Shown: positions 19,350 to 63,935, numbered from the stretch's first letter. The stretch: DNA of 64,000 bases from Candidatus Omnitrophota bacterium (GCA_016206925.1 JACQQS010000062.1:9254-73253); one strand, 5' to 3'. Made by a program: numbers and translations. The notes: generated by a model not told the origin, from the sequence alone.

Positions 19350-20567
19350 TTATAAATGCTGGGTAATGGTCAGAATCGGAAGAAACAACGCAATGACAAT
19401 TCCGCCGATCACAACTCCCAAGAAAGCAATAATGACCGGCTCGATAATGGAAGTCAGCCCGTTTACGGCGGCAGATACCTGTTCATCATAAAAATCGGCA
19501 ATCTTATTGAGCATTTGCTCCAGCTCTCCGGTTTCCTCGCCCACCGCAATCATTCGGACCACCATGGGCGGGAAGAGTTTGGTTTTACTTAAAGGTCCGG
19601 CAATGGTTTCACCCTCCTTGATGGACACCTCGACTTCATTAACGATTTTTTCGATGCGCACATTGCCCGCAGACTTTGCCACGATTTCAAGCGCGGTCAA
19701 AATGTGCACGCCGCTTTTGACAAGCGTCGACAAAGTCCGCGCGAACCGGCTGATGGCTACTTTCAAAAACAATGGACCAAATATGATGAGCTTCAATTTC
19801 ACGCCGTCGAACCAGTAACGCCCGGGGTTCGTGGCGATAAACCGTGTAAAAACAATGAAGAATATCACAAATCCAAGCACGATGAACCAGAAGTTGTCGC
19901 GCACGAATTGGCTGAACTCAATGAGAAACAAAGTTAATTTGGGCAAAGGGGCCTGCAATTGCGCAAAAATTTCGGCAAACTTCGGAATGACAAATGTGAG
20001 CATGAGCGTCGTGATCACCATAGCCATTACGCTGACGACGGCCGGGTAAATCATTGCAGACCGGACCTTCTTGCGCAAACTGCTCATGCGCTCATAGTAG
20101 TTTGCAATACGGTCGAGAATTTCATGGAGATTACCGCTTTCTTCACCGGCTCTGGCCAGGTTTACAAAAAGTTTAGAGAAAACTTTAGGAAATTTTGAGA
20201 GCGCTTCGGAAAACTTCTTGCCCCCTTCTATGTCATCACGAATCTTTAAGATAACGTCCTGAAAATTAGCGTTATCCATCTGTTCGCCCAGAATGGTGAG
20301 GGCCTGGAGCAAAGGCACGCCGGCATCCACCATGGTAGCAATTTGACGGGAAAATACGACAAGGTCATCCAGCTTTATTTTTCTGCGTTTGCGCGTGAAT
20401 CCCTTGCCGGCGAAGAGGCTCTTTTTCTCGCGTATGGGCTCAACCGAGATGATGTGGAAACCCTTGTCGCGCAGAAGACCTACCAGCCTCGTGACATCGT
20501 CAGCTTCCTGGACTCCCCGTATATCTTTGCCCTCGTGGTCTTTCACGTGATATATAAATTCGCCCAT
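19350..20567 (-). CDS. pilC: type IV pilus platform protein PilC (GspF family), copy 1
   Basis: 405 aa with two T2SS-F repeats. Immediately downstream of the two PilB-like ATPases. Confidence 0.85.
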   Translation of the reverse strand: MGEFIYHVKDHEGKDIRGVQEADDVTRLVGLLRDKGFHIISVEPIREKKSLFAGKGFTRKRRKIKLDDLVVFSRQIATMVDAGVPLLQALTILGEQMDNANFQDVILKIRDDIEGGKKFSEALSKFPKVFSKLFVNLARAGEESGNLHEILDRIANYYERMSSLRKKVRSAMIYPAVVSVMAMVITTLMLTFVIPKFAEIFAQLQAPLPKLTLFLIEFSQFVRDNFWFIVLGFVIFFIVFTRFIATNPGRYWFDGVKLKLIIFGPLFLKVAISRFARTLSTLVKSGVHILTALEIVAKSAGNVRIEKIVNEVEVSIKEGETIAGPLSKTKLFPPMVVRMIAVGEETGELEQMLNKIADFYDEQVSAAVNGLTSIIEPVIIAFLGVVIGGIVIALFLPILTITQHL

Positions 20568-20598
20568 GACGGTCCCTTCTCGTTGAAGTGCGGGTTAT

Positions 20599-24008: not shown

Positions 24009-24013
24009 GGAAT

Positions 24014-24562
24014 TTACTCAGTAGACGGCGGACTCTGGGTAGGTTTCTCTGTTTTCTTCTCGCGTGCGACGCGAAAACTTATTTTGGATACGTTCACACT
24101 TGCATTGTTGTCTTCAGGAAATTCGAGCTTGTAGTATCGCTTGATGGCTTTTTTTATCTCCGTTACCGTGGCGACAAACGGCTGCACATGACAGCCTGAG
24201 GTCGATTCAATGGTTTTAATCGCTTGCGCGTTGCTCGGATCAGACATGACCACGGTGAGAATGCTTTGAACTCGGTCAATTGGAATGCATAGATATTGAC
24301 GAACGGTATCTATCGGAAGGGCTTTTACCGCTTGCGGGTTTATTTCGAAGTTATCTATGGGAAGATAAGGAAAATTGAATTGAGTGGCGAGCGCTATGAC
24401 AATATCTTCTTCTTTCACAAAACCAAGGCGAATGAGAATTTCGCCGAGCAGCCCGCCCTCCGATTCTTGCGTCTTGAGTGCCTGGTTGAGCCCGCCTTCG
24501 TTTAGGATGCCGTACTCAAGAAGAATTTCCCCCAGTTTCTTATGTCCCGCTTCCTTGGGCAT
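24014..24562 (-). CDS. stand-alone T2SS-E N-terminal domain protein (MshEN-like; candidate c-di-GMP receptor)
   Basis: 182 aa. Two tandem motifs matching the MshEN consensus: KLGEILLEYGILNEGGLNQALKTQ and LLGEILIRLGFVKEEDIVIALATQ. They are followed by a GSPII_E_N-like fold region (PIDTVRQYLCIPI...VVMSDPSN). Confidence 0.7.
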   Translation of the reverse strand: MPKEAGHKKLGEILLEYGILNEGGLNQALKTQESEGGLLGEILIRLGFVKEEDIVIALATQFNFPYLPIDNFEINPQAVKALPIDTVRQYLCIPIDRVQSILTVVMSDPSNAQAIKTIESTSGCHVQPFVATVTEIKKAIKRYYKLEFPEDNNASVNVSKISFRVAREKKTEKPTQSPPSTE

Positions 24563-39620: not shown

Positions 39621-39902
39621 TTAGGCGCTGACGGATATGGCCTGAAGCGCGGTTATGTAGGCGGCATACACAGCGCTTAAGTTACTCATAAGCGAAGCGG
39701 TGGGCCGGTACGTGGTGAAGCGCACCGCGTCTTCCGTGGGGTCCAACCAATTCCGGCCGAGCGCTTCCGCGAATCCTAGTCGCGCCAAGTGTAAACCGAT
39801 GAAGTTGAGCGCGGCATATTCCTCATAGGACCTTCCGGTTCCATCCAATATGAGCTTGGGGACTTGATTCAGCAGCCCGCGTTGATTGAGCGCTTCAATC
39901 AA
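39621..39902 (-). CDS. hypothetical small ORF (93 codons) downstream of giant gene 1; TTG start, no visible RBS
   Basis: ORF-track entry only. The start codon is TTG (reverse complement of caa at 39900-39902). No family recognised. May be non-coding 3' UTR. Confidence 0.25.
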   Translation of the reverse strand: MIEALNQRGLLNQVPKLILDGTGRSYEEYAALNFIGLHLARLGFAEALGRNWLDPTEDAVRFTTYRPTASLMSNLSAVYAAYITALQAISVSA

Positions 39903-39916
39903 TTCGGGCGATGCGA

Positions 39917-42900
39917 CTATGCGGCTTTGGCAAAAACTTCAACCATTTCAATTGCGTCACTGATCATCTCAAGCACGTTTGTCGTGCTGAGGACGCGAAT
40001 CCCGATTCGCTTCATCTGCTCAACCCCAGCCATAGGAAAATTTTCTCCCGCCAGCAAAAGAACGGTATTAGGGTGTAGCAGGGCATATGCCTGTAGCGTG
40101 CCTAAAACATTTTCATGCCTTCCGCTTAATGCCGCAACGATCGGGTCGTTATAGTGGTTCGCTAAAGAAAAAGCATCGGGGTCATCGGTGACTATAACAA
40201 TGTCGTCCAAAGGAACGCCAAAAACGCCCGCAACGATTTCCCGTTGGTTCTGGGAGAGCTCGGGTAAGCCGATCAGATAAATCTGTTTAAATCCGTCAAG
40301 ATGGAAGACAAAATTAACCGTCCGCCGCGCAGATTTTCCGGCTTCAAGAATTTGATTTAGAAACAAGGAATCATCGATAATGAGGGAACCTACTTTTTTC
40401 CCCGCCGTGCCGGGTAAAAGAATTTCACCGAGTTCCACGCTAACTGCATCCATTGCCTCCTGGCCTCTTTCGCGTATTATGAGCGGATTACTGCCGGCAA
40501 CTAATTTCAAAGTTTGGCTTAGTTCTGATCCGAAACCAGTACCATCTGTCGTGCCGGCGTCGGTGTCAAAACTGCCGGAATGCTTGTTCAAAGCTGCCGT
40601 GAATATTTCGTTGTCAACAAACCTGAATTGTTTATCACCATCGACCGAAGCTTCAATAAAAATCTCTTCGCCCTCAAGCCCCAGCCGTGCGTAGTATTTT
40701 TCTTGCAAGGCAAAACTCTCTTTAAAATCCACTGCGCGAAGCCTGCCCAGTTCACCGCCGCGGGCTCCTGCGTTAAGAAAATCCTGATGAATTTGTAGTA
40801 CCACGTCCCATGGCTTATTTAAGGCGAACAAGTCAGCTGTTGTTTCGCCCAGACGGCCCCACGCGTCAAAATATGCTCCTATAAGCGGCGCGATTTTAAA
40901 ATCGCCTTCAATCTTTAGACGGGATATTGCAGCAAACTGGTGAATTCTTCTGACCGCGGGTTCGACATCGCGGAGCCATGCGGCCGGAGCCTTGGAGATT
41001 AGATTATTTGATCGAATGGGGGCAACGCGGAATTGCATGCGAGTGGCCTGGGAGGTTGTGTTAATATCAACCACGGTGAATACCTCTGGGCGAGGAGGTG
41101 AGTAAAACGGGATCTGATAGATTCCCGCATATCGAGCAGGAGTTGGAAATTGAAATTGGGACAAAGTTCGTATATCCGATCTCTTTTGTTCCAGCATACG
41201 CCTGGCTTCCCTAAAGTCGAAGGGCTCGCCCCACTGATTCAGAGGCGGGTAACCTTCTTTGTTGATTAACTCTTCTGCAATATCAATTAATTCAACCTGA
41301 GCTTGGACAAATCGTTCAGCCGCTTCTCCGCTGTCCGGATTATAAACGTCGCCGCTGGTTGTTGAATATATTGACTCACGCGTAGCATCGTAGCCCATGT
41401 CAAGTCGGTTTCGAAGCAGTTGGTAAGGCAGATAGTGTTTCCACAAGACATCGGAAAGATCATCAATAACATGGGACAAAATTTGGATAGGATCGGTGTG
41501 GTCTTTATATCGAAATCTATCCGGTCCCGCGCCTCGATCTATTTCACGGAGCGGCTGAAAAAGCTCACGCAGTAAATCGCTATTGGCGACATATCTTGAT
41601 TCTAAGAGGTGATCAAAAAAGGCACTCAGCCAATCTTGAAGGAAATCTAGTTCCGGTATCGGGGCTTCATAGGAATCTTTGCCAAATTCCCTCGCTTGAT
41701 TGAAATCGTAAGCCACAAGTTGAAGGTAATAGCCAAAATATTTTTTAAAACTCTTTAAGGGATCCCGCTCATTGAACAAATCAATATTGCTGCCCGCATC
41801 GGTATAGTAACCTGTGGCCAGCGTATTGTCCGGATTCAAGGCGATATGGACGTTCGCAATGTGATGCGTAAGAATTTCTGCAGCGTTCCAACCCATCTGT
41901 TGGGCAGCCGATCCCGGATCGAAATCTTCGCCACCACCCTTGAAAATATGCCCTATCCGTTGATTTGTCGGAGAAGCTCGGCCAATAATTTCAAAGCGCG
42001 TGTCGTTGCCCGGATAACGGAACCGCAAGCGAAAAAGTGCGCGCGGCGCAGCGCCGTTAAAATAGGCGTCCGTTCCTACGAGTCGCAGCAAGTGGATAAC
42101 GTCTCCTTCGCCGCCAGCTTGATGACCCGGATAAAGCGCGCCGAGATCGACGCGCGTGACCACATGTTGCCCGGCTTCGTTTTTATCTCCGGCGCCGCCC
42201 TGAACGACGCGCCCGCCTGTCGCGCGAATGTTTTCGCCTCTACCGCCCATGAAAGGCCCCGCTGATTTCAAGTCAACGATAAATTCAGCGCCCATATCTG
42301 AAACAATCAGGACAGGTTCTCCCGAATCCATCCAAAAAAGCATTCCACCCCGTCCCGGAGCTACTGTATCCGGGTCGAGGTTGACTTCCATCATGTATCG
42401 AAGTTTGGTTTGTGCTTCGCCATCGACGGTGGAAAGAATCTTGCCCTGCCCCCACACTTCTTTTGTAAGCCATTCACGTAATTCCCAAGGCAGCCGCATA
42501 AAATCCTCATATAATTCCACCTGGAGATCTTCAACGGGCACGAGGTGGAGAGGCACTTCAAGGGAGAATTTCGTCCACACATCCGGAATAGTCCGCTTGC
42601 TCTCCTGCATGTCGCCGACCCACTTTACCGTAATGCGATTGGAGTAATCATCTGGATCTGTATGGCGTTGCATTCGGCCGTTATGATCCCTTCGGTAAAT
42701 ATGACTTACAAGGAATTTACCTTTGAATCCCAGCTTATGAGCGCGATCTTTAGCCCAGTCAGGTACTCGGGGCGAGCGTTCACTTATTCGAAGGTCGGGT
42801 CTTTCTTGCTGCGTGCGTTCATCGCGCGCAATATCGGACCGCACCCGATCCAGATGGGGTGAAGTAAATAATGCTTCTAATGATGCACCGGTTTGGCCAA

Positions 42901-45900
42901 GGATTCCATGCTGCATTGTAGCGAGACCTTGAGTTAAACCGATTACGCCGGATGCAGGAACGTCGGAAACTATTGTTGACATCGTCTCACCTAAACTAAT
43001 TGCCAGCTTACCTTGTGCCCTTAATGTGGTGCTAACAGATCTAACGACGGGCGACAAAACTTTCGACTGGAGAAATTCTTCGGCCTTAATTTTTGAGTCT
43101 TCTTGCCACGAGAAAAGATCGTCCTCAATATCTTTAATCGAACGCGTTGGCTTCGGAATTGAGGAATCTGCGGCATCTTGATGAAGCCTTGCGTCAGCCA
43201 ACTCTTTTTCCAACTCGGCTGTGTGCCGGCGTCTTCCGGTGGCGTACAGTAAATTCTGCGTAGCCTTTTGCCTGTCATACTCATACCTAAGACGCGAATT
43301 ATTTATCTTCTCCCCTTCGTTGGCAAACGCCTTCCAATAAGCCAGCTTGGCCCCTGCAGTTCGGATCGCCTGATCGATTTCATCCTGCCGGCTAAGGTCA
43401 GGCTCCGATTTCATGGCCCCGAGCTCTTTCAGGAGCGAAGTTAGATGGGCAATTCTTTCATTCGCAGTGATTTGCTTGAAAAGAGGCTGCGAACCGTTAT
43501 AGATATGCCCCTTTCCGAATGTTTCAATCCGCCAGTCTAAAGCGAGAAATATGCGGTAATCCGCATCTGAAAAGAAATCATAGGTATCAACAATTATCTT
43601 GTCTTCAAGACCCATCATGTGCGCTACGGCTTTTATAGGGTCGAGGCCCGGGTACGTTTTCCTCCGCGTCCCCGCATCGGGGTGTTCGCGGCGTTTATGA
43701 ACAGGTTGATTGGAGCCGACGTATTCAAAATGACGTGTAGCAAAAACCAGTGCGTCGAGTTTCGGATGGAAGAATTCCAGCGGATTTTCCACCTTGCGAA
43801 AGGGTATCGAATTAAGGTCATCTTGGTTCAGGCGACCGCGCGCTTGCGATGATGCGCCTCTAGGTTGCTGTAAGGCAAGTTCTGGCCAAAAATCAGTATA
43901 AGGATCTGTGGCCTCTACGCGGCCTCCGAAATGCGCCATTTCGCGGACGACATGCTCTGAACCACTGTGCTTTGTGTTGCCGGTTCCTTCTTTATACCCT
44001 GTTCCGAGAACGCCTACCGTTATTTCCGAAAACTGCACATGCATTTTGCCCGTAAATTGATTAAGCAGCTTCCACGTGACGTCTTTTGCTCTCTCCTGGA
44101 GCATGGATGATGCGAGAAGCCGCGATTGAAATATCCGAAAGATTTGGTCATCCTCCATTTCGAAGTAAGTTCTTAACCCAACTACTATTTTCAAGAGTGC
44201 TTCAGGAGTACAGCTTCCACCGGGACACATGGAGGGAGCGCGCCGCATTCCCATGCGGGACCTTGGGTGAGCGCGTACAATGCCTTCGATTATTTGAAAT
44301 GCGTCGACCCCAATTACTTCTGCGGTTTTAAGATAGCCATCTAAAATTTCAAGCAAATCGTAAAACCAAGATAGTTCCAAAAGCTTCAAAAATTCAACAT
44401 CCTCGGATACATTCCAGACTTTATAAGTAAAACCGATTTTTTTAAAGTAGCGCTCGAGATCTTCCCGCGCGGCAGGTGAAAATGCGGCGCTCTCCCTTCT
44501 AAAATCTCGTAAGGATCGCAGTTCTTCCGCTCCGGGCGCCAAACGTTGAGGTGAATAGGCTAGGCGGACATACGGTGCGCCACCTTCTTTAGCTTCTGGA
44601 AATCGATCGCGCATTACGCGGTCTATCGCAGGCAAAGCTTCTTTCGACACGAACCCAGGTTGTACCGTGCTCTCGATCACTACAAGAGCGTCCTTGCGAA
44701 TGAGCGAGCCGATGGTTTCAAGCAATTTTGCGGTGGGCTGAGTGTTAATATGGGCTTGCTGAAATGTGCCCCGTGGAGGTGCATGCATTTCCAATTCAGT
44801 CTCTACGAGAACGACATCTGCTACCGCCATCACTTCAGGCAAAAATGTCGCGGCAATTACACCGTCACTGCGCGCCGTGCGAAAATTACGAATCATTTCC
44901 TGGTCGGTAGTTGGATGTGGTAACAGCCCGTCGTTTATAAAGTGAACTGCATATCCGGATCTGGAAGTTGGTCTTTGGTAGGCTATAGAAAAATAGGGCC
45001 GTTCTTGTGCGGAGATAGTTCCGCGGAATCGATTGCCCTCCTGCTGGTCGAGCGGGGCTCTCGCTTCGGATGCCAATGCCATATTGGCTTGCGCCACATG
45101 TCCGGCGCCTACATGGACAGAAATCTCGCGGCCTAAGGCACGCTGAATAACAATCTCAGCCATCAGATTAATCCTCATCTGCTCAAATTCGGCAGCATCG
45201 AAAGGCAGTGTGAACGATCTCCCCTTGGGAGCCGTGGTGAGAGTACCCGCTTCAGGGAGCTGATCCAGACTTCTGTATTCAGGAATCTTGTAAGGGCCGA
45301 GCTTTGTGCTACGGTCGGCTTCAATTAGAGCGACAAATGTATCAATGGCCAATTCCCCTCTTGAAGCGAGAAAACGCGAAAGTTCCATTTCTCCGCTCCT
45401 GTCGGATCCGGGATTAAACCACCGAAGCATGGCTTCTTCCACATCGGTTCGGATAGTTTCAGGCGAGATGGGCGGCGCGTCCGAACCAAAGCCGCGTGCC
45501 ATGCGATCTGTAAGTTCTCTCAAGCGTTCCTGAAAGAACTGTACGGTTGTTGAATTTGCAAATGTTCCATTGCCGATAGATTCAATGCGAACTGATTGGG
45601 GCGACTGCGCATAGTTTAGCCATTGCGAGCCGGATTTTCTCATGCCCGGCGACTCATCACCGCGCCAAAGGATGACATCGGTAGTTCCAGGGAACTGCGC
45701 AAAGCGATCACCGATATCATCCGGGACGTTTAAAATCGGATGTTGCGGGCCATATAATCCGCGCATTACTTTGTTCAAAGGTTGCACGGGCGTACGAATG
45801 AGGATTAAATGCCGTGTGTTAGAAAATTCAGGCTCTGACGCAACAATGGGCAGGAGTTGGCCGCCGTGTTCTTGTCCAATCAATATGATTTTTGGCGGTT

Positions 45901-55300: not shown

Positions 55301-58300
55301 CAGGATTTAGCGTCGCTGCAGCAAGTTGAATTTCCGCATGATGTGCGGACGCTAGAAAACGGTCTCTTCTTTTGGATATGAACTCGGCTAATTTCGAGAA
55401 GCGATCACGCCCTAGAGGTTTTCGGATGCGCGCTAAGGTGACATGAACTACGCCGGGCGCGCCTCCCGTTGGTGAAGTTTTTCCGGCAAGCGCTTTGCTA
55501 AGCTCTGTTCGAAGAGAAACTAGATTTAAGTCACGCACGAAACCTTGAGCGATTAAGCTGCCACCTGGGCTTAGGGTAATTCCCTTCCAATCTATGTCGA
55601 ACGGTTGCGATAACACGATTGCTGAATTTATGTCAGGAATAAGCGCTTGGATGGCGTTGTCAGAAAGGTTAGCATCGTAGACATCGTGCGGAATATAGAT
55701 ACTTAGATGAAGGTTTTCATTTGGTATCCAGAGGATTTCGTCGTTCGACCAAGTAAATTCATAACCCAGGACTTCCTCGTGCATTTCCTTACGAATTTTC
55801 TGTACCTGAGTAATGAATGGTATGGACTCCGACAAGTGTGCGAGGACGTTGGAGGTTTTACCAACGCGAGGATTTCCGTCTTCGTCGTAATGTCTGGGAT
55901 GGCCTGCAAAATCCTTTGGATCAAAATCGCTCCTAGATGTACCAATGTTTGTTAAGTTGTTAAATATTTCATCGTAGCGCTCTAAGAGTTTTTTATTAAA
56001 TTGTTCGATCGTACCGAATCCAGCCGACGATCGCGTAATTAGCGGCGCTGGCGCTTCTGCTGATTCTCCTTCGTGCGGTTGAGGGGCAACTACATCTGGC
56101 GGTTGCGCTGCTTCCCCTTGGGCGGGCGGCGACCGTCTCAAAAACTTCCAAAGCCAAATGGTGAGGAGCAACGTAAGATAGTAGAAGGTATCACTCCCAA
56201 CAACAATTGTTCTGATCGTGGCTGTCTGATGACCCACAAAGTTATATAGTTTTACAAAGCTGTCGGCCATGTTTGCGCTGCCGATCAAGTAAGCACCCCC
56301 GATAAGACCGGCGGTGAGCAGTACTTTTAAGGCGGCAATCGGTGCGACGTGCTTAAGGTAGTAAAGGACGTCACTCTCTTTACGTCCTCCTCCCAGAAGT
56401 GCGTGTTTGATACTTGGATATTCGTTTGTCGTGTGCCAATGGAGGAACATTTGCGTCATAAGTAAGCCCGCGCTGTTCAAACCCATGAGTGCGACAAGAA
56501 CGCGGACGGGATCGGGCAATGTGCCGGAGACGGCAAGCGCAATTACGATAACCACCACTAATATATTGAAAAGGGCCATCCCGGCTGGAAAAACCGGTTT
56601 TGTCTTCGCTTTTATTATTTCCAAGTGAGGACGCTCTCCGGTGAACTCAACCTCGTAGTCTCTGTACCCATTAACCGTGATCACGGCGGTTTTTTTGGCA
56701 CCGTTGTAATCTGTAACTCGTGTATCACGGAGACGGACCGATTGTGTTTCTGGATTATCCGGATCAAACCGATTCAGGGCCGGCTCTAGTTCCGATGTTC
56801 TAATCGAATGATCCCTCTTCTCTTCCAACTCAACAATTGTTTTCGAATCTTGCGTCATAAACAGCAAAATACTCGCTGTGACCAGATAGACCGGAGCATA
56901 TATGAAAAGAGTCGATAGTAAACCCGTTTTTGGCGCAAAACCAAAAAAAGGAATATAGCCAGCAACGGCGGCGACAGCGAGCGGTAACGCCAGCATTAGA
57001 GGAATCATACCTGCGGGCGAAAGCGGCATAGAACCCGAGATCATCGAAAGCCAGAATGCTTTGAACGGATTTGCTGAAGTCTCGCGTCTGTAGTCCTTAT
57101 TCAGCTCCTTCGTCCTGGCGAGCGACATGTTTGGGCGCCCAGCCAAGATACGGTAGATTTGGAAGATCAAACCCTGCCGCAAAGGCTGGGCAGATACCCA
57201 GACGGTCCAAAGATAAAGGAAAATGGAGCTGAGCCAAGGGAGAGCTCCGATAGGTAAGGACATCCATCCGAGCGAAAGCGTGGTAATGACTGCGTCTTGA
57301 TGACTGAGGTAGATGAGGCCCAAAAGAAAGCCTGCTGTAAATAACGGACTGACAACAGCGTGGCGTGAGGAAATTAAGAAATCAATATATTCCCCTTGCC
57401 GAAGGTTCCGGACTTGTTTGCTTACCAGCCGTTCAACGATAGCATGACCAAGCCAAGCTGTTTCAGCTTTTACAATAGTCCACATCGCCTTGCCAAGGAT
57501 GAGGAAAAACTCCAGTGTTTTCACAAGATATGCGATGGTGGACTTTACTAATTCAATGGGGAAGTTAATAATATACCGAATAGCGTTGAGCAGTCTGAAA
57601 GAAATCATTCCAAACGTGATTCTGATAAAGCCGATCAGACCGAGGCCTCGTTCGTACCGGACGACATCATAACGTCCCAGCTCCGGAAGGATGCCTGCGT
57701 TTTGTAACCAGTCCAATATCAATTGATTGTCTTCGTTGCGATAGTCAATTTCACCCCACGATTTCGCAATCCTGCCGCTGGAGAGAACGTACGCAATGCC
57801 GGCCAACACTCCGAGCACCATGTTAATCAGTTCGAAGAACGCCTTACCGAGTTTGGTAAGAAGGATAATTGGAATCATACTGACGAGCAGCAAACTGTCA
57901 GCAATAGGGAGGGGAATAATACTCGGAGACAAGTAAGATCCGCCGCCGATCAAGCTTGGTAAAAGCATATCGCGGAATACGTTCTCCAAACCAAGAAAGT
58001 AAGGTACCCCCCTGGAGTAAAACCCCAGAATCAGATACGCAGAGAAGAAAAGAGCTGTAAACGCTCCGCGTGGCGGGATAAACTTAGAATAAAGCGAGCC
58101 TAAGTCGACCGCTTCATCATCGCTTTCCTCGGTTGATCTGACGTAGGGACTAATGGCGGGTGTCCCGGTTACTGTGTTGTAAATATATTGTGCGAAGCTC
58201 ATGGGAACACCGTAAAAAAGCTTCATGGTTCCCTTCTTCAAGGCTTCCCACTCGCCGCCGATCCAGCGAGTTCCCTGGATAATCATATCTTTAATGGTGT

Positions 58301-61300
58301 AATTCACGTCTTCCCACGCGGCAAGAAAAGGAAGATATGCCGTTTTTGTTATTCCATATTTGTATGAATCTTCAATCTGAGCCTCGGCCGGCAGTATTTC
58401 GCCGCCAAAGAGCCGCGTGCGGTAAGTTATGCCGCCCAATGTGATTCTTTGGCCTTGCAAGCTCTCGCGGAGAAAGTCTTTCCGCTCGAGGCCATTCCAC
58501 ATCTCAGGAAATTCCCTTTCATTCCGTTTGGGAGCCGAGCGTCCAAGGATGATTCGTTGGCCACCGATGGTTAATGCGTATTCGTAGAATGACCGTCCCT
58601 GACCTTCCGGATCTTGAATGGAGTGGCCCGCATGCCCGGTATCTGGATCTATCTCAAATTTCACGTCATAACCGATGTACCGTTTCCTTTTGTGCTCGAC
58701 GGTAGGTTGATCAATAGTGAAGTCTGTAGTTTGTTCGAGCTTCGCCGTTTCTTCTGGTGTCAGAATCCAGCTACCGTCTTCGCTGATGAACACGCGATCC
58801 TGCGCAGTCATGATCGTGCCCACGCGGCGATTCTTCGCATCGTAGAGGATGATACGGGGATCCATAAGTTTTCCGATGAAATCGGCCATGCGTCCAATGA
58901 ACTTGCCAAACATGCTGAAACGGCCGCGGGCAAATGTTTCGCCGACGGGCAGAAAATAAAGCATTTCGCGCGCGACTCCCGGCATCCAGCTTATGGGTGT
59001 GAAGACCGTGTTAAAAGCGCGTAAGAATGGCTGGAACATTGAATAACTGCGGTTGGTCCAATGCTCCGAAATTTCCAATGTCGATCGCACAATTCCATCA
59101 GGCCAAAGATTGTCACCGTCACTCACAATTTTATATGGATATCGCCCGCGGAACTCGTAGAAGGTTGTATCTATTAGGGTGCGGTTTCCTTTCAAAATAG
59201 CTTCGGTTACCGTTGTGATCTGACGTTCGGAATTATCGGGATCGGCTACCCCACCCTTGTATTTTCCAGTCAATCCGGCCTTCTGGAGATCCCACACATC
59301 TTGCATTTCACCTTCCTGCATTTTGATCAGATCCTTAATGAATTGCCGGTAACTATACCCTTTAATGTCATACGCAACATTCAGCGGGAGCCCAAGTTTC
59401 TTTAAAGCCTCTTCACCTTCTTGCGGAGTCTGAAACGTGTTTATAAATTGATCAACAAGATCTCCGTCAGAGATACGAGGCTCTTCAGCGCCAAATCCTG
59501 CGGGCGGGCGGTTCTGACCCAAGCGTTGTTCCAAGGCGGCACGCAATTTGGGTATATTGATGTAACCCCAGGCAGGCAGTGCAGGATCTTTAACAAAGTT
59601 ATCGCGATACGCTTCGATGTATGTTAGGTTTCCGTAACGGTCGTAGATAAATTCATAGCTAACGACTCCAATTTTTGCTGATTTGGGATTTCCATTTGGG
59701 CGGCGTGTAATATCTTCTGGTTTAGCTTTTTTTAGAATCGCATTTTTACGCCACGGCGCAACGCGTCGCGTATGATGCAGTTCATTCCTTCGCGTGTATT
59801 CCTCGCCTGTATATTCCGAAGCATATAACTGACCTCGAAATCCAAGAATTGTTGCATCGTCATCCTGGCCGGATTTTCGCAGGTGGCGGTTGGTACGGTG
59901 GATAAACTTGAGATCCCGCTTGAACTGGGCAATGTGGGCGCGCAGAACGGCTTCGACAAAGGCGCCGGTTCCCTGTGTATTTGGAATATGTGGCAGGTCT
60001 TTTTGAATCTGCTCGAAGATTCCAACCCACAAGCCTACAGCATCGTGAAATGAGCCAAAATTCTCTTGAAGCGATTTTTCTGTCTTCTCATCAATTGGCC
60101 GAACCGATTCGCTCAATTGTCTCCAGTCATCAGGTGTGAGTACCGCGCCAGCACGCTGTCTTAGATGGGCGACGACATTCTCAAGGGAAGTTTCCATAAT
60201 GCTTCCAATTTTTTCACGCATCTCTTCCCTCACACGCGCCGTTTCCATCAAAACGGAGAAATTGTTGCTTGCATCCACGATAGTTGTTGTAAGAGTATGA
60301 TTTGGATCCGCATTGCCTAGGTGCGTGCCGTGTCCCTGTTTCTTAAGTAGTTCGGCCATATCCTCTGTAGTCTCGGAAATCCTGTAGAATTGACCCATTG
60401 TTGCATGTCCAAGCGGTATTGCGCTGACAAGCACACGTTTTCCGCCAACCACTACGCGTTTAGCAAAACTGTGTGCCTTAAAATATGCGCGCCGCCGTTC
60501 CGACCTGTCTCTTTCCGGTTTCGCATCGTCCGTCGTTTTGTTCATCGACCCATATAAAATCGAACCGAGAATGTAGGAGAGGAATCCCGCAACGATATCT
60601 CCGAGATTCCAGTAGAGCGGAAATGTCACAAGCGTTCTGAGAGCCGCGGCCTCAAAATTGGAAATCTCGGGAACCATCAGTATCCAAGACCAAATGGTTG
60701 TGATCAAAGCAAATCCGATCGAGACAGGGGCATAAAAGAAAAGAAAGATGGGACCTGTAGTTCGCAGCGCCCTCCAGTTCTTGTATCGATAGAGCGGACT
60801 GATAGTCCATTTGAGTATTTTTAACCCAATCAATGCAGAAATGAAGTAGGAAGGGTAAAGAAATGCCAGGATGGGCTGGCCGTAATGCTCGGTCATTAAC
60901 TGCGGCAGTATCGTGGTAAGCAACCCCACGCTGACAGCTTTTAAGAATCCCGGAAGGAAGCTGGGCAAAGCGCCATACATCAAGCCTATGAATGTGGAGA
61001 AAATCAACGCACCCACTATTGTCAAGATGGTATCGGGGAGAAGTCGGTAATTTTCAAGATGTTTCTTAATCTGAGCCGTTATATGGAATAGCCGCTGGAT
61101 TCGATACTCACGGTGCGTAATCAAAGTATGTATGTATTTTAATAAAAGCAAAGCGAACGGAATCGAAATGGACAGTATAGCCCCAAGGTTCAGTCTTTGA
61201 ACTCCGGCCGCCGTCTCAAGACCTTGTTTTATGTCCACCGGCATCAAAGGAGAGATGAAATCGAACAAATGTCCTGTGATTCCATGAACCAGATAAATTC

Positions 61301-63935
61301 CTAGAGCAGCGACTGCTGAAGCAGTGAGAATACCTGCCACTGACTTCAAGACTTTGCCTCTGATCGCTAATATCTTTGCCGCAAGGTATCGCATCGGGAT
61401 CCTGGCAAAAATCAGCGCTACGCCTCCAAAAACAAAAGCCGTCCACTTGTGCTGGAACATCCATTCAACCATGCTGAAGAAGGCGCGCCATAGACCTTGC
61501 GATATTGGGAATTCCCGAATTGCATCATTTATGCCCAACAGGAAAACAATAATGGTTAAGGCCGCACCAAGATAAAGCCGTCTAGAGAAAAGACGGCGTG
61601 AGAATGTCTTTCTTTTGGCGAAAAAGGTGTAGACATGCGGAAGGACAAGAGCTACAAACCCGCCTAATGCGACGTAAGCCATAATGAAAGCGTTTGTTTT
61701 CTGGGTATGCCGCTCTTCGCGCGCGATGATATCATCACCGACCGCCCTTGCGCTCTGGCGCGTCTCTTGAATAGCGGGAGGCCCCATGCGTTCGAACATA
61801 AACTCAAGGAGTCCTTGCAGCTTGAAGAATGCGTTTGAGGTGATATCAGCCTCAGGCATGCCCATACGTTTGAGCGCGTCGGCATGCACAAGCTGTAAAC
61901 TTCTCAACGTCTGAAAGTGCTCGAGTCTTTTCGTTATTCGTTCCTTAAGTTCGTCTTTGTCTGAGAACGAAATAAGCGGCCACTTTGCCCTCTCTTTTGG
62001 TGGCTCATTATCGTGACCGGAGATACCAAGAAGATATCTTCCTTGACTCATGAAGAAGCCAGCGACGCTACCAGATTTGTCGAAGAAATCGAACTCTTCC
62101 TTCTCTTCTAAAAGTTCTTTCATGTCGGGTCCCAGCAGGAGTCCGGTGTTAAAACTCTCACGTACCTGAGCAAGGCGCTCGCGTAACGGCATTTTCTTCC
62201 ACTCATCCAGCTCCTTATAGGTTGCTGCGCTCCACCCGCTTAAGCCTAATAGGTAAGTCAGTTCGCCAATGAAAAAGCCAACCTCCTTCTTGTTGGTGAA
62301 ATCAAGTGCCTTACCGCTTGCTTTGTGCTCATTAACCTTCTGCTCAATTGTTGTGTGCGTGCCTTCACCAAGTGATTCAACAGCTCCAAGCATTGCAAGA
62401 ATCAGCTCGAAAGTTTCCTCGCGCTCCAGAGTATGAGCGGGCAACGCTTCTTCAATTTCGCTAATCCATTTTGTTGTGTACTCCCAGCCGTTGAGCTGCC
62501 GTGTAATGGCCCAAGCAATCACAAAGCCACGGTAACGCCGGTTCGTAATAAAACTTTCTTGTCCGGGTGGGACTTTCTCACCGAAAAGTATGTCGCTCAG
62601 CTTCGAAGCTTCCTTGAAGGCGGTTGCGCGTTTTTCCTTGTCGTTCAAGACTTCTGTTAAAAGGGTAACACTCCTATTATCTTTGGCCTTTTCTTGAAGC
62701 GGTGGTTCTACGACACTTCGGAAACGCTCCTGAAATTTCTTAATCTGTTCTACTTGTATCCCATCTGGATCGAGTTGACTTTTGTCAGCTAGTCCGTCAG
62801 GCAGTTGAACACTTTTACCTAACTGAGCGTATATTTTTTTAACGGTTTCGTAGCCTGAGAAATTATTGCGCATAATCTCGCGGGTGATCTCTGCTCGCGC
62901 CGCTTGATGCGCCAGTGCTTGTTCAATAAAGGTATAAACTTTTCTAGGAGGTATTTCTCCTGTTTTTGCATCGCGGCTAGGGGTGCCATAGGTATTTACT
63001 CCGCCCGTCGCAAGATAGAGGTGAAAATTCGTGCTTGCCCACGGATCGCCTGTGGCAGCCAAAATGGCTACCGCGTACCCTGCGACTTTGGAGTCATCCG
63101 TCGTTAGCCCATAGTTCTTGTACGGCTCACGCATCGCCAGAATGCTTACATGCTCACCAAATTTCTTGGCTATTTCCGTAGAATCCACCGTTGGTGCGGC
63201 ACCAATTACTTGGTAATTCATTTTGCTCCGCCGCTCTTTATTTAGAGCGAGATACGACTGAACTGCGCGAGTCATAATATCCGGTAGGAAAGCATGTTCT
63301 CCGCTAACGGGGTAGTAAATCACCCAGGAGTAATCAAAAGCGCTTTGGACAAAAGTTTTCGGCACTGTAATGCCATCGATAGTTGTCCAGTCGAGTCGCA
63401 TGCGTTTAAAGGCGCCGTCAGATTTTAAATAACCGAGTGAAAACAATTCCGCAATCAGGTATCCGGCTTCTGACATGATGTATTCATATGTCGCAGGTTT
63501 GCGCGGATAAATCTCCCCTTCAATAAGTGTGGTTTCGCTGCCCCATTTCGGGACAGATTTGCTCTGGACGAGTTTGCCACTTGAATCAAGCTCAACCTTC
63601 ACCGTCACTTTTGTTTTTAGACGGCCTGAAGTTTCATCAATAAAATGCTCATAGTTGTGCCGCTGAGGATCGTTGAATCGATCTATGGCAGTGACGATCT
63701 TCTCTTCGATAGAATCTGCTGCCGCGTTTTTTTCATAGTAGTTTCGAATCACATTGAGCTTGGTAGTCAGCCAAGCCATGTCGATAGGTGAGAATGAAAC
63801 AGTTCCGGTAACCGGAGCACCCGGAATGAAGCGAGTCTTTTTGTCAATGATTATCTTGGGCACGATTTTCCCATTTGCATAGTCATACACCAACCATTCC
63901 GGAAGGATTCCCTCATAGCGTGGCACCTGTTCCAA
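52344..63935 (-). CDS. giant polytopic membrane multidomain protein (at least 3863 aa): ~750-aa N-terminal soluble region, three TM clusters (~22 helices), embedded 2H-phosphoesterase-like, DUF218/YdcF-like and HD-phosphohydrolase-like domains, ~400-aa C-terminal region
   Basis: Uninterrupted 11.6 kb ORF. The first start-like codon is TTG at 63935, three codons after an in-frame TAG. 2H-like: NLHLSIYI ... VVHVTLARI. DUF218-like: ADLILALGSY ... KRILVAGG ... ENRSTNTGANIQNAAQLL ... IILIQFPLGQ. HD: ILWHAVVLHDYGRLV. Confidence 0.8.
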   Translation of the reverse strand: MEQVPRYEGILPEWLVYDYANGKIVPKIIIDKKTRFIPGAPVTGTVSFSPIDMAWLTTKLNVIRNYYEKNAAADSIEEKIVTAIDRFNDPQRHNYEHFIDETSGRLKTKVTVKVELDSSGKLVQSKSVPKWGSETTLIEGEIYPRKPATYEYIMSEAGYLIAELFSLGYLKSDGAFKRMRLDWTTIDGITVPKTFVQSAFDYSWVIYYPVSGEHAFLPDIMTRAVQSYLALNKERRSKMNYQVIGAAPTVDSTEIAKKFGEHVSILAMREPYKNYGLTTDDSKVAGYAVAILAATGDPWASTNFHLYLATGGVNTYGTPSRDAKTGEIPPRKVYTFIEQALAHQAARAEITREIMRNNFSGYETVKKIYAQLGKSVQLPDGLADKSQLDPDGIQVEQIKKFQERFRSVVEPPLQEKAKDNRSVTLLTEVLNDKEKRATAFKEASKLSDILFGEKVPPGQESFITNRRYRGFVIAWAITRQLNGWEYTTKWISEIEEALPAHTLEREETFELILAMLGAVESLGEGTHTTIEQKVNEHKASGKALDFTNKKEVGFFIGELTYLLGLSGWSAATYKELDEWKKMPLRERLAQVRESFNTGLLLGPDMKELLEEKEEFDFFDKSGSVAGFFMSQGRYLLGISGHDNEPPKERAKWPLISFSDKDELKERITKRLEHFQTLRSLQLVHADALKRMGMPEADITSNAFFKLQGLLEFMFERMGPPAIQETRQSARAVGDDIIAREERHTQKTNAFIMAYVALGGFVALVLPHVYTFFAKRKTFSRRLFSRRLYLGAALTIIVFLLGINDAIREFPISQGLWRAFFSMVEWMFQHKWTAFVFGGVALIFARIPMRYLAAKILAIRGKVLKSVAGILTASAVAALGIYLVHGITGHLFDFISPLMPVDIKQGLETAAGVQRLNLGAILSISIPFALLLLKYIHTLITHREYRIQRLFHITAQIKKHLENYRLLPDTILTIVGALIFSTFIGLMYGALPSFLPGFLKAVSVGLLTTILPQLMTEHYGQPILAFLYPSYFISALIGLKILKWTISPLYRYKNWRALRTTGPIFLFFYAPVSIGFALITTIWSWILMVPEISNFEAAALRTLVTFPLYWNLGDIVAGFLSYILGSILYGSMNKTTDDAKPERDRSERRRAYFKAHSFAKRVVVGGKRVLVSAIPLGHATMGQFYRISETTEDMAELLKKQGHGTHLGNADPNHTLTTTIVDASNNFSVLMETARVREEMREKIGSIMETSLENVVAHLRQRAGAVLTPDDWRQLSESVRPIDEKTEKSLQENFGSFHDAVGLWVGIFEQIQKDLPHIPNTQGTGAFVEAVLRAHIAQFKRDLKFIHRTNRHLRKSGQDDDATILGFRGQLYASEYTGEEYTRRNELHHTRRVAPWRKNAILKKAKPEDITRRPNGNPKSAKIGVVSYEFIYDRYGNLTYIEAYRDNFVKDPALPAWGYINIPKLRAALEQRLGQNRPPAGFGAEEPRISDGDLVDQFINTFQTPQEGEEALKKLGLPLNVAYDIKGYSYRQFIKDLIKMQEGEMQDVWDLQKAGLTGKYKGGVADPDNSERQITTVTEAILKGNRTLIDTTFYEFRGRYPYKIVSDGDNLWPDGIVRSTLEISEHWTNRSYSMFQPFLRAFNTVFTPISWMPGVAREMLYFLPVGETFARGRFSMFGKFIGRMADFIGKLMDPRIILYDAKNRRVGTIMTAQDRVFISEDGSWILTPEETAKLEQTTDFTIDQPTVEHKRKRYIGYDVKFEIDPDTGHAGHSIQDPEGQGRSFYEYALTIGGQRIILGRSAPKRNEREFPEMWNGLERKDFLRESLQGQRITLGGITYRTRLFGGEILPAEAQIEDSYKYGITKTAYLPFLAAWEDVNYTIKDMIIQGTRWIGGEWEALKKGTMKLFYGVPMSFAQYIYNTVTGTPAISPYVRSTEESDDEAVDLGSLYSKFIPPRGAFTALFFSAYLILGFYSRGVPYFLGLENVFRDMLLPSLIGGGSYLSPSIIPLPIADSLLLVSMIPIILLTKLGKAFFELINMVLGVLAGIAYVLSSGRIAKSWGEIDYRNEDNQLILDWLQNAGILPELGRYDVVRYERGLGLIGFIRITFGMISFRLLNAIRYIINFPIELVKSTIAYLVKTLEFFLILGKAMWTIVKAETAWLGHAIVERLVSKQVRNLRQGEYIDFLISSRHAVVSPLFTAGFLLGLIYLSHQDAVITTLSLGWMSLPIGALPWLSSIFLYLWTVWVSAQPLRQGLIFQIYRILAGRPNMSLARTKELNKDYRRETSANPFKAFWLSMISGSMPLSPAGMIPLMLALPLAVAAVAGYIPFFGFAPKTGLLSTLFIYAPVYLVTASILLFMTQDSKTIVELEEKRDHSIRTSELEPALNRFDPDNPETQSVRLRDTRVTDYNGAKKTAVITVNGYRDYEVEFTGERPHLEIIKAKTKPVFPAGMALFNILVVVIVIALAVSGTLPDPVRVLVALMGLNSAGLLMTQMFLHWHTTNEYPSIKHALLGGGRKESDVLYYLKHVAPIAALKVLLTAGLIGGAYLIGSANMADSFVKLYNFVGHQTATIRTIVVGSDTFYYLTLLLTIWLWKFLRRSPPAQGEAAQPPDVVAPQPHEGESAEAPAPLITRSSAGFGTIEQFNKKLLERYDEIFNNLTNIGTSRSDFDPKDFAGHPRHYDEDGNPRVGKTSNVLAHLSESIPFITQVQKIRKEMHEEVLGYEFTWSNDEILWIPNENLHLSIYIPHDVYDANLSDNAIQALIPDINSAIVLSQPFDIDWKGITLSPGGSLIAQGFVRDLNLVSLRTELSKALAGKTSPTGGAPGVVHVTLARIRKPLGRDRFSKLAEFISKRRDRFLASAHHAEIQLAAATLNPGQLIGDESLNPVANFHLGFGARLNDLNTLATFLAQRDQLPEKADLILALGSYDMRVPIETARLFKEGKAKRILVAGGAGRLTGFPNAAAYKRGVKLLVDAGINVQVARQMLKGWFRGRKHIKKEADLFREVLIALGIQDKNKLGEDIILVENRSTNTGANIQNAAQLLNDKTLHDKIASIILIQFPLGQKVASATFQKQFMIHYRGQEPNVYNYAPPLAKLEDLSRQELDEAIVLATGSIVRLKAYGPKGRGFLVDVEISGNVQDAFERLASPAQIAEFYHGGYASNAELQLKLEEKQKGLHKTITFEKVKQFYKAAQTAKSPSELKAVYDKYLGIFDWEALVPITGEAWKAADGTTAKMKSHHDAMIALVDALEQGGDIAARALHERALEPLDLDLIQKIVAQYQNLSTSERRILWHAVVLHDYGRLVTNGPQHAQIGARLVNNLLEHLDSFSTQLSAEGIQPFSPQDMDQLIEYTGRELEFGSLHWGETIPANVARGLRRQGIDVSKFLRTMSIVAGIIDPASVGAGRLRNTHLQNVEILSDAHSLSALQRHWSFIRLNALFHDEKLEYPFTPDILSAPALSSRVPHIFTELVYRPDIKTALRNVAFQKFIMLFRNIAERGTTGPENAAKWLILLLGLHERNKINFVGLSIDFGEFVQPFIQILEGIDLNKVAAGEITANLHEDTLVVSDAVTKQTYFSIPYSKTSDRNGIELNMPEFKGPESGFGIAAPAPKPQPNLDQIFNEAESWMGKWANAAAGKDLAFQTSVLADSRRSIAPEEQKLADALVSLLAAQPIQSIGAIHGKVVHAVDFNSGLITADQLGDSSFWQNYFGTQLPTHRVTVYNAPANIALPEPFSEFVEITTETTPASTRTGWNNADRIVVSSNILSSYGSAELEEKVVQVLVDIGDIESKVSAERLATIRALGMQFGRLLAFDLLSGELGRVAAYRVAGTRAYVFNSATVTAILSHFIDEAKKYEAIARAA

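Follow-up and report, generated by a model that had tools for sequence, protein, structure and literature searches.

A modular, putatively exported Omnitrophota protein combines a Tiki-like head with a rare dehydrogenase–SelO-like cassette

Introduction

Long multi-enzyme proteins are known from the Omnitrophota, and 94% of them carry a signal peptide or transmembrane (TM) helices (10.64898/2026.06.07.730766; 10.1101/2023.11.21.568195). Strings of cytoplasmic-type enzymes behind a signal peptide have been described for Omnitrophota proteins of at least 10 thousand amino acids (kaa), with "Multi-enzyme metabolic clusters" as one class (10.64898/2026.06.07.730766). The giant genes of the phylum lie near genes resembling those of type II secretion systems (T2SS), and the N-terminal C39 and S8 domains of the larger proteins have been proposed to self-process (10.1101/2023.11.21.568195). 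Giant Omnitrophota proteins have also been proposed to act on host or prey cells, and a host-dependent lifestyle has been proposed for the phylum (PMC10066038). Here, we analyze one gene within a 64,000-nucleotide (nt) stretch of DNA from a Candidatus Omnitrophota bacterium (GCA_016206925.1, JACQQS010000062.1:9254-73253), which in its entirety is called the window and supplies all coordinates below. The gene encodes a protein of 2673 amino acids (aa), in which a predicted signal peptide and a Tiki-like "head" precede a contiguous cassette of a dehydrogenase-like and a SelO/YdiU-like domain. Its principal features are as follows.

39917..47938, minus strand: complete coding sequence of the modular, putatively exported protein (2673 aa plus stop), with an intact frame, an identical NCBI entry and colinear orthologues
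47837..47938, minus strand: predicted Sec-type signal peptide, aa 1-34 (heuristic call; n-region charge +6, 14-aa h-region, TFG/Q site, the slash marking the expected cleavage)
46604..47761, minus strand: Tiki/TraB/ChaN/EreA-like hydrolase head, aa ~60-445, with a ~225-aa helical insert and the catalytic candidates D83, H85, E111, R376 and H404
43499..45136, minus strand: UDP-glucose/GDP-mannose-dehydrogenase-like domain, aa ~935-1480 (G-A-G-H-V-A, STVQPG, SPQRLAPG, LKLLEL, GGSC1243TPEA, YKEGTGNTKHS)
41039..42721, minus strand: SelO/YdiU-like protein-kinase-fold domain, aa ~1740-2300 (R1863 in GRGG, K1891, R1987-x6-R1994, H2031, N2035, D2037-N2038, D2047)

The protein is a smaller member of the known class of Omnitrophota giant multi-enzyme proteins (West-Roberts et al. 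2023; Nielsen and Lui 2026; Seymour et al. 2023, PMC10066038). Like the other members, it comes from this phylum, carries a signal peptide or TM segment and joins several unrelated enzyme domains within a single chain. With the giants, it has in common the N-terminal signal peptide, a string of cytoplasmic-type enzyme domains with unannotated sequence between them, a peptidase-like domain at the N terminus (C39 and S8 types being reported for giants), nearby genes of the T2SS or type IV pilus (T4P) kind, and a fast turnover of domain content. It differs in length, as 2673 aa is far under the thresholds used for giants, namely, at least 10 kaa (Nielsen and Lui), more than 20 kb (Seymour) and at least 30 kaa (West-Roberts), and in having a single hydrophobic segment in place of tens of TM helices. 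The initial annotation of this DNA had singled out a cytoplasmic fold within a secreted giant as unusual; this holds in general, but in Omnitrophota it is an already described pattern. The Tiki-like head family, the dehydrogenase–SelO cassette, the lineage-specific remodeling of the dehydrogenase site under constraint and the shared [SA]A end of the chain did not turn up in searches of the texts of the published Omnitrophota surveys.

The individual modules have their own described counterparts. The head resembles the TIKI superfamily (TIKI/TraB-PrgY-GumN/EreA-ChaN), to which RRSP of MARTX toxins (5w6l) and the type III effector HopBA1 (5t09) belong and some members of which are exported or effector proteins. 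The likeness extends to the alpha/beta core with its parallel sheet and to a catalytic acid-x-His, Glu, Arg and His at strand ends with similar spacings. In contrast, the similarity of the head lies under the Pfam thresholds, its first acidic residue is Asp instead of Glu, a helical insert of ~225 residues splits its core, and it leads a protein of several kaa. The dehydrogenase-like domain shares with UDP-glucose/GDP-mannose dehydrogenases (TIGR03026; TviB/WecC-type; closest solved structure UDP-ManNAc(A) dehydrogenase, 4r16) a predicted three-part layout of Rossmann domain, central helix and UDP-binding domain, together with the STVxPG, xPxRxxPG and GxxYK motifs and the GGxC cysteine loop. 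It departs from them by a 40-residue insert after the Gly loop, by the replacements Glu to Gln, Asn to Leu, Lys-Asp to Glu-Ala and DTR to NTK, and by its setting in a cassette, where it is flanked by a helical extension on its N-terminal side and a SelO-like domain on its C-terminal side, within a protein that has a signal peptide.

The SelO-like domain finds its best structural match, by two methods, among the SelO/YdiU AMPylating-UMPylating pseudokinases (6eac, 6lna, 6k20; complexes with nicotinamide adenine dinucleotide (NAD), 9jyn and 9jym). Both have the Lys, the R-x6-R, the N-x-D-N and an Asp nine residues on, and both lack the HRD-type catalytic Asp. They differ in that the domain studied here matches neither PDB SelO nor any Pfam family at the sequence-profile level, has an extra beta-rich N-terminal part, receives insertions of up to ~300 aa in relatives, and shares its chain with a dehydrogenase-like domain. 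Nothing of the Cys/Sec-Ser tail conserved at the C terminus of SelO was noted. Last, as in MARTX, multi-effector and polymorphic toxins, several unrelated enzyme modules, including one Tiki-like module as in RRSP, are strung on one long chain and swapped between paralogues. Unlike in those toxins, no RTX or other repeats, cysteine protease domain or type I secretion system (T1SS) genes were noted, no translocation module was identified, and export appears to be Sec dependent.

Results

The gene is intact and under selection

A single frame is open from 39917 to 47989 on the minus strand, giving 2690 aa from a TTG and 2673 aa from the ATG at 47938. Chance cannot account for a stop-free frame of 8 kb in DNA of 49% GC. 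From end to end, the ATG product is 100% identical to the NCBI entry [quoted passage not shown], in which MAG stands for metagenome-assembled genome. Independent groundwater metagenomes supplied two colinear full-length orthologues with 64-66% identity, P0002 (2671 aa) and P0003 (2665 aa). Because of the full-length NCBI identity and the two independent orthologues, an artifact of frameshift or assembly is unlikely. The uninterrupted frame described in the initial annotation is borne out. The ATG start is supported by the N termini of the orthologues and by a conserved putative promoter, TTTACA-17-TATAAT, ~60 nt upstream.

We compared the two orthologues segment by segment by the Nei-Gojobori method (dS ~0.4-0.7). 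The ratio of nonsynonymous to synonymous substitutions (dN/dS) was 0.06-0.26 across every segment, demonstrating that the gene is real and under selection. A locus search with the protein alone returned no relative among the GTDB species representatives.

A Tiki-like head defines a family of modular proteins

A first protein search yielded 31 distant matches of 1480-4603 aa, all named ones from Omnitrophota, which align to the query in aa ~24-472 only. Their bodies carry unrelated Pfam domains, among them protein kinase, methyltransferases, PEP-utilizing enzymes, FBPase, glycogen synthase, transaldolase, LOG, GNAT and M23. The head behind a signal peptide is common to at least 33 other proteins, each with different enzyme domains, and defines a paralogous family of 1.1-4.6 kaa.

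An alignment of 27 heads (A1) showed that H85, E111, F369, R376, G401, G402, H404, P424 and Y440 are invariant, while D83, Q91, G112, G146 and E148 are nearly so. The AlphaFold2 model built on A1 (predicted local distance difference test score (pLDDT) 84, predicted TM-score (pTM) 0.81) has an alpha/beta core broken by a long helical insert (model residues 132-356). In this model, the head shares the core fold of ChaN, the Ere esterases, TraB, RRSP and HopBA1, the last two of which are secreted effectors and among its closest folds. These fold relatives approximate the membership list of the TIKI superfamily (PMC6254334).

The catalytic set of RRSP comprises E3900-x-H3902, E3930 and H4030, plus R4001, and that of Bcr135 includes H85/E113 (PMC6254334). 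The head offers D83-x-H85, E111 (+26), R376 and H404 (+28), at spacings resembling those of RRSP and Bcr135. In the model, core beta-strands (43-49, 73-76 and 361-367 in model numbering) lead into D83/H85, E111 and H404, and R376 lies within the helix (model 316-356) preceding the last of these strands. Judged from the alignment, the head carries the complete D-x-H / E / R / H catalytic set of the superfamily, and we consider it a putative peptidase or esterase. A Tiki/TraB module had been annotated here from the motifs LLEGTP, R-E-M and GGYH. The modeled fold, weak Pfam matches and the invariance of E111 in LLEGTP and H404 in GGYH agree with this assignment; R-E-M (aa 155-157), however, is not conserved, and the conserved Arg is R376. 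Among the Pfam matches, PF04187 (Cofac_haem_bdg) was touched by 5 of the 27 heads (best E value 6e-4), and a search of PDB sequences with the A1 profile returned only noise.

A rare cassette couples the dehydrogenase-like and SelO-like domains

The first protein search had suggested a similarity confined to the N terminus. This was overturned by an exhaustive HMMER scan of 1.84 billion representative proteins, which exposed a cassette with relatives in just 21 proteins. The block aa ~820-2300 (to ~2446 in some) recurs contiguously in at least 12 other proteins of 1.5-5 kaa and runs from the dehydrogenase-like domain through a helical linker to the SelO/YdiU-like domain. Aligned over the whole query, P0035, P0036 and P0037 reach E values of 5e-274, 9e-276 and 3e-289, and the contiguous alignments of aa ~820-2300 to P0035, P0036, P0041, P0044 and P0045 have E values of 1e-142 to 1e-275. 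The alignments to P0035-P0046 begin at query aa 818-835, which places a helical extension at the start of the cassette. The remaining parts of the cassette region are as follows.

45137..45481, minus strand: helical N-terminal extension, aa ~820-934 (..LRWFNPGS..FLASRGE..)
42722..43498, minus strand: helical linker, aa ~1481-1739, poorly conserved and termed coiled-coil-like from its sequence character
40589..41038, minus strand: post-SelO extension, aa ~2301-2450, kept in a subset of relatives (P0039, P0040, P0041, P0043 and P0047)

The linker is fast evolving, with the highest dN/dS of the protein (0.26). Since the cassette occurs in proteins without the Tiki head, it is a mobile unit in its own right. 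A Pfam scan of four cassette relatives found a GHMP-kinase N domain in two, one of which also has a nucleoside triphosphate (NTP)-transferase domain. Sequence motifs suggest that other cassette relatives may carry the same domains. P0039 is a protein from an Omnitrophica MAG, P0035 is named "UDP-N-acetyl-D-glucosamine dehydrogenase" by the Joint Genome Institute, and a 49-aa fragment among the matches was binned as Deltaproteobacteria. Together with the distribution of the head, these data establish a protein built from exchangeable blocks and of Omnitrophota origin. We also observed a motif, [AST]-G-L-E-E, which recurs between domains in one lineage of cassette-bearing giants (P0035, P0036, P0042, P0044, P0045 and P0046), with as many as ten or so copies in a single protein. 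The motif resembles a linker or a site of polyprotein cleavage, and it is not present in the window protein.

The existence of the cassette changes two points of the initial annotation. The ~1300 C-terminal residues reported there as unassigned in fact hold the SelO/YdiU-like domain, the probable catalytic partner of the dehydrogenase-like domain. The latter, in turn, does not stand alone but opens a ~1500-aa cassette, of which it makes up the first half and which always runs into the SelO/YdiU-like domain.

The dehydrogenase-like domain is remodeled yet strongly constrained

The call of a nucleotide-sugar dehydrogenase fold at aa ~950-1400 is upheld by matches to TIGR03026 (E value 1.3e-15, aa 1061-1406), the UDP-ManNAc dehydrogenase model NF040825 (3e-10), PF03720 (UDPG_MGDP_dh_C; 5e-5), PF03721 (UDPG_MGDP_dh_N; 4e-3) and PDB 4r16 (2.4e-9). 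These profile matches are significant, although the query stays below the curated cut-offs, scoring 57 bits against 189.8 for TIGR03026, 24.1 against a gathering score of 30 for PF03720 and 17.1 against 27 for PF03721. Cassette relatives that align to the query at E values of 1e-270 reach the gathering thresholds of the three UDPG_MGDP_dh domains in Pfam (N, central and C), and membership in the superfamily is therefore secure.

The motif pattern of the cassette family is GxG[FHY]VG, [ST]T..PG, [FP][QH]R..PG, K..[ED]N, GG[YF]C[IV]PK[ED] and ..DTR. Throughout the family, the Glu of the PER motif has already become Gln or His (Pro in P0044), and the query has PQR. The query and its two orthologues are changed further, with K..EN becoming K..EL, CxPK[ED] becoming CTPEA, DTR becoming NTK and GxGxxG becoming GxGxxA. 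The Gly loop, G944-A-G946-H-V-A, is followed by an insert of ~40 aa, and a Gln appears to occupy the place of the acidic residue expected after beta2. As had been noticed before, GGSCTPEA stands where GGxCxPKD is expected, with the Cys kept, and the orthologues read the same. Cys1243 is retained in the orthologues and the cassette family, and Lys1185 is also retained. The canonical site is nonetheless not preserved, as Asn is replaced by Leu, Glu by Gln and Lys-Asp by Glu-Ala.

Despite these changes, dN/dS is lower in this domain (0.061) than anywhere else in the protein, and 76-82% of its positions are invariant across the three orthologues. On this ratio, we rejected the possibility that it is a decaying relic. 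The earlier suggestion of a repurposed module or an altered mechanism fits the Lys to Glu and Asp to Ala changes, the lost Asn, the DTR to NTK and PER to PQR changes and the constraint taken together. We read the sequence as that of a fold kept for binding, dimerization or a noncanonical reaction, probably neither a standard two-step NAD-dependent oxidase nor a relic.

The second half of the cassette resembles SelO

The AlphaFold2 model of the second domain (pLDDT 83, pTM 0.84) predicts a protein-kinase-like fold whose nearest structural neighbor, by two methods, is SelO. Complexes of YdiU with NAD are among the best Foldseek matches. In an alignment of 13 sequences (A4), G1862-R1863 (GRGG), K1891, R1987, R1994, H2031, D2037-N2038, T2046-D2047 and E2057-R2058-x-P2060 are invariant. 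The active site of Escherichia coli YdiU consists of R87, K107, R170, R177, N244, D246, N247 and D256 (10.1101/692707). We found counterparts of K107, R170, R177, N244, D246, N247 and D256 in K1891, R1987, R1994, N2035, D2037, N2038 and D2047, respectively. All seven are invariant in the 13 sequences except N2035, which is Ser or Thr in some members. The local spacings are those of YdiU, with R-x6-R in RASPTNQRIG, N-x-D-N in H-I-A-L-N-P-D-N and D-N-x8-D placing an Asp (YYTD) nine residues after the Asn. An HRD-type catalytic Asp is absent, as in SelO. The dN/dS of the domain is 0.114. A 2026 commentary reports SelO as an NADase (PMC13391479). This report and the Foldseek matches to YdiU-NAD complexes link the SelO-like domain to an NAD-type partner.

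Between the head and the cassette lies a third block, which is shared with three cassette-bearing giants and which we assign with low confidence.

45500..46243, minus strand: tentative alpha/beta-hydrolase-like domain, aa ~566-813

It recurs in P0037, P0047 and P0048 (E values 1e-6 to 4e-15), at another position in those proteins. Its Pfam signals are faint (BAAT_C 2e-3, Abhydrolase_3 0.22), and a phmmer search of PDB with aa 480-830 returned noise. At the position of the nucleophile elbow, the query has GQEHG, with Glu for the expected Ser, while P0037 has GRSHG and P0048 GKNLG. The putative Ser is therefore not kept across the four proteins with this domain. A Pfam scan of four unassigned segments of the protein at E values up to 10 gave nothing useful.

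Both ends of the protein carry recurrent features

The N terminus, MRVKRRASARRK-FAAFILILLHLCVL-PSSETFG/Q, has the n-, h- and c-region layout of a Sec signal peptide and, in a hydrophobicity scan, contains the sole true hydrophobic segment of the protein; a second hydrophobic stretch, aa 1026-1046, is a Rossmann strand. The N termini of the orthologues read ..TTIFA/QP, and most of the 31 paralogues also have AxA-type sites. These heuristics favor the signal peptide proposed earlier from the ATG at 47938. A lipoprotein reading of the segment (LHLC) was rejected, as the lipobox is poor and the orthologues have no Cys at that position. By the positive-inside rule, the bulk of the protein is placed outside.

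At the other end, the chain closes with a domain found only in this lineage.

39920..40588, minus strand: lineage-specific C-terminal domain, aa ~2451-2673, with an amphipathic helix at its end (..FAKAA-COOH)

When the 54 collected proteins were searched by jackhmmer with the final 234 residues, aa 2451-2673 had no relatives beyond the orthologues, and a phmmer search of PDB with aa 2300-2673 returned noise. The terminus itself (..EMVEVFAKAA) follows a wider pattern, as [SA]A ends the chain, after an amphipathic helix, in 24 of 34 head-family proteins (27 with [SA][AL]). It is also found in the two Tiki-headed neighbors of the orthologous loci (LSVSA) and in the cassette proteins P0036, P0041, P0042, P0044 and P0046. 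By comparison, the ending occurs just twice among the 36 other open reading frames (ORFs) of the window that are 150 aa or longer. Because jackhmmer reaches the orthologues only, the [SA]A end is a motif and not a detectable homologous domain. It looks like a terminal recognition motif and may serve as an export, processing or degradation tag. PDZ-type C-terminal processing proteases and ClpX-type unfoldases are known to bind small apolar C termini. As separate observations, a minority of giant proteins ends in ..[RQ][SA]L, and the second, unrelated giant of the window ends in IARAA (52344-52360), its orthologues ending in IQQAA (locus L001, ~8500) and IRQSA (locus L002, ~8540).

Genomic context

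The giant gene is followed by nusA-infB-truB-ribF, while on its upstream, divergent side a LacI-family gene is found, along with two AAA_14/DUF4143 ATPase genes and a second giant ORF, which is multi-TM and unrelated. The surrounding features are as follows.

48268..49320, plus strand: LacI-family regulator gene, divergent, with its own predicted promoter TTGACG (48165-48170), 17-nt spacer, TAATCT (48188-48193)
48009..48037, minus strand: candidate sigma-70 promoter of the giant gene, read from the sequence as TTTACA (48032-48037), 17-nt spacer, TATAAT (48009-48014)
48046..48065, no strand assigned: AT-rich palindromic element TAGAACTTTAAATAGTTCTA just upstream of the giant-gene -35, a candidate operator
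39621..39920, minus strand: remnant of a second Tiki-headed giant gene, its last ~99 codons (tblastn 58-61% identity, E values 2e-36 and 5e-39, to the C termini of the L001/L002 proteins)
49503-50885, plus strand, and 50957-52231, minus strand: two AAA_14/DUF4143 ATPase genes between the LacI gene and the second giant
52344-63935, minus strand: second giant ORF of at least 3811-3863 aa, which may run past the listed start near the window end, with ~15 predicted TM segments and a DUF218 match
4813-24562, minus strand: type IV pilus/T2SS-like cluster with T2SSF (two copies), secretin, PilM/N/O, a ParA/MinD-like ATPase, T2SSE ATPases (two copies) and an MshEN protein

The divergent LacI-family gene was confirmed, the spacer measuring 329 nt, and its adjacency is kept in the two syntenic orthologous loci, L001 and L002. 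Two predicted promoters within the spacer are conserved, as is an AT-rich palindromic element. Both hexamers of the giant-gene promoter are conserved in the window, L001 and L002, and palindromes occur at the same place as TAGAACTTTAAATAGTTCTA in L001 (ACTATTTTAAATAGT) and L002. The element in the window is not a CG-centered LacI-type site, and no CG-centered LacI-type palindrome is conserved in the spacer across the three loci. The sole near-consensus site, TGTCACCGAGCTCA (reverse complement TGAGCTCGGTGACA) at 48132-48145, is one mismatch from the generic LacI-family pattern TGnnAnCGnTnnCA. It lies ~20 nt upstream of the -35 of the LacI gene, within a window-specific insertion of ~24 nt that the orthologous spacers lack. 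The sugar-responsive LacI control proposed earlier thus comes down to adjacency, and regulation of the giant gene by the LacI protein is possible but unsupported.

In both orthologous loci, the order is an 8-kaa giant, the divergent LacI gene, the gene studied here, a second Tiki-headed gene and nusA. The second Tiki-headed gene of L001 (18175-21564; 1129 aa) and that of L002 (18089-24550; 2153 aa) code for proteins that have ~646 N-terminal and ~436 C-terminal residues in common (65-69% identity) and differ by a middle block of ~1075 aa, which indicates that cargo is gained or lost between a conserved head and tail. In the window, a deletion of this gene begins right at the stop codon of the giant gene, and the remnant survives as a 93-aa ORF (39621-39902) between the giant gene and nusA. 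The two ATPase genes are absent from L001 and L002 and therefore represent a local insertion. The orthologues of the second giant ORF in these loci are 8.1-8.3 kaa long; we rejected this ORF as a paralogue of the studied protein because its sequence is unrelated and multi-TM. The pilus cluster, 15-35 kb from the giant gene, also holds two PMT_2 glycosyltransferase-like genes and a PilS/PilR-type two-component pair. Its presence in the window matches the published association of giant Omnitrophota genes with T2SS-like genes.

Discussion

We favor the reading, to which we give a little short of an even chance, that the protein is an exported multi-domain effector directed at a host or prey. The protein would leave the cytoplasm by Sec, after which the nearby type II/IV-pilus-like machinery or some reader of the [SA]A end might take it over. 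Outside the producer, it would act as a multi-domain effector on the host or prey cell. The SelO-like domain would be the main catalytic output, either transferring a nucleotide monophosphate from an NTP onto a target or cleaving NAD+. The dehydrogenase-like domain would be its partner, binding a nucleotide, NAD or a nucleoside diphosphate (NDP)-sugar and supporting dimerization. We prefer this partner role over that of an oxidoreductase because four to five residues for the two-step oxidation are lost, yet the domain is the most constrained part of the protein. The Tiki-like head, as a peptidase or esterase, would process the polyprotein or attack a target, and the neighboring LacI-type repressor may control transcription. 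The effector reading is preferred because these chemistries need the NTPs and NAD+ of another cell, because the head has effector relatives (RRSP and HopBA1), and because of the host-dependent lifestyle proposed for the phylum.

Several observations weigh against this reading. To our knowledge, neither the periplasm nor the cell exterior provides NTPs or NAD+, so an enzymatic function needs delivery into another cell. A translocation module (pore-forming repeats or a T1SS, type III or type VI secretion signal) was not found, which leaves the effector model with a missing piece. The signal peptide, and with it Sec export, is predicted by sequence heuristics. At the head, PF01963 (TraB_PrgY_gumN) scored 17.6 bits against a gathering cut-off of 26.8. 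The proposed link to SelO is one of modeled fold and motifs: the Foldseek TM-scores are low (0.24-0.35), the A4 profile found no SelO in PDB sequences, only noise, and no Pfam family, the SelO family included, matches the region at E values up to 10. Because a match at the level of hidden Markov models is lacking, we call the domain SelO-like and not a member of the SelO family. Unconventional redox activity of the dehydrogenase-like domain may also persist, as Cys1243, Lys1185 and the GxGxxA loop are kept. Last, the GHMP-kinase (sugar-kinase) and nucleotidyltransferase domains in several cassette relatives point to glycan metabolism over an effector.

These same sugar-kinase and NTP-transferase domains, which are typical of NDP-sugar synthesis, speak for a function in the cell's own envelope. 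The protein would be exported and kept in the periplasm or on the surface, where it would build, remodel or sense the glycan coat, its dehydrogenase-like and SelO-like domains working on sugar nucleotides or glycan-linked substrates and LacI tying expression to sugar supply. The two PMT_2 glycosyltransferase-like genes, the pilus/secretin cluster of the window and the LacI neighbor kept in three loci would all fit. However, a supply of NAD+ and NTPs is absent outside the cytoplasm, the canonical dehydrogenase residues are gone in this lineage, there is no membrane anchor past the N-terminal segment, and the Pfam scans of the protein revealed no carbohydrate-binding or glycoside-hydrolase domain. 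We regard an envelope function as unlikely, though as the strongest of the rival readings.

The problem of nucleotide supply would vanish if the body stayed in the cytoplasm of the producer, with ATP, UTP and NAD+ at hand. The N-terminal segment would then be an uncleaved anchor or go unused, and the protein would be a fused metabolic or regulatory machine, as befits the cytoplasmic-type, nucleotide-requiring nature of all its recognizable domains (dehydrogenase-like and SelO-like). We find this improbable, as the n-region charge of +6 ahead of a single hydrophobic stretch predicts an N-in/C-out orientation with the body outside, AxA-type cleavage sites recur in orthologues and paralogues, and known Tiki/PrgY-type domains work outside the cell. 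If such a scaffold is nevertheless the case, the finding is mainly an improvement of annotation.

The reading closest to the initial annotation would be a secreted and still active sugar-nucleotide 6-dehydrogenase with a modified catalytic loop under sugar-responsive LacI control. Membership in the superfamily is real, Cys1243 and Lys1185 are retained, purifying selection on the domain is very strong, and the LacI adjacency is conserved. Yet the changes of Asn to Leu, PER to PQR, CxPKD to CTPEA and DTR to NTK strip catalytic and UDP-sugar-binding residues, and the TIGR03026 score reaches 57 bits against a cut-off of 190. With no conserved LacI-type operator in the spacer and the obligatory SelO-like partner domain left out of account, we consider an active dehydrogenase very improbable. 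That the ORF is decaying or an assembly chimera can be practically dismissed, since for all that the source is a MAG and the locus is dynamic (a neighboring paralogue cut to a 99-codon remnant, two ATPase genes inserted), no break interrupts the frame over its 8 kb, full-length colinear orthologues occur in two independent assemblies, and dN/dS is 0.06-0.26 in each domain.

Returning to the effector reading, a bolder version, which we hold to be a long shot, would join the two cassette halves into a nucleotide-transfer enzyme of a two-domain kind not described before. For example, a machine that modifies proteins or glycans could draw on NAD+ or an NDP-sugar, bound by the former dehydrogenase domain, as the donor for the SelO-type site. 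This enzyme would be delivered, along with dozens of other cargoes, on a common chassis of signal peptide, Tiki-type processing head and an [SA]A-COOH tag that a system devoted to export or processing would recognize. If true, this would be a new class of secretion substrates or effectors in an uncultured predatory or episymbiotic phylum.

A SelO-like domain fused to an NAD/NDP-sugar-binding fold in an exported protein would provide an unexpected context for the SelO and pseudokinase field, given the reported binding and cleavage of NAD+ by SelO/YdiU. Few microbial gene products are as poorly understood as the giant and long proteins of Omnitrophota, whose Pfam domains the published surveys list without a common grammar. 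The 2.7-kaa protein described here is small enough for expression and presents three reusable elements, namely, the Tiki-type head, the rare conserved cassette and the shared [SA]A C terminus, each of which is a search handle for annotating much larger proteins.

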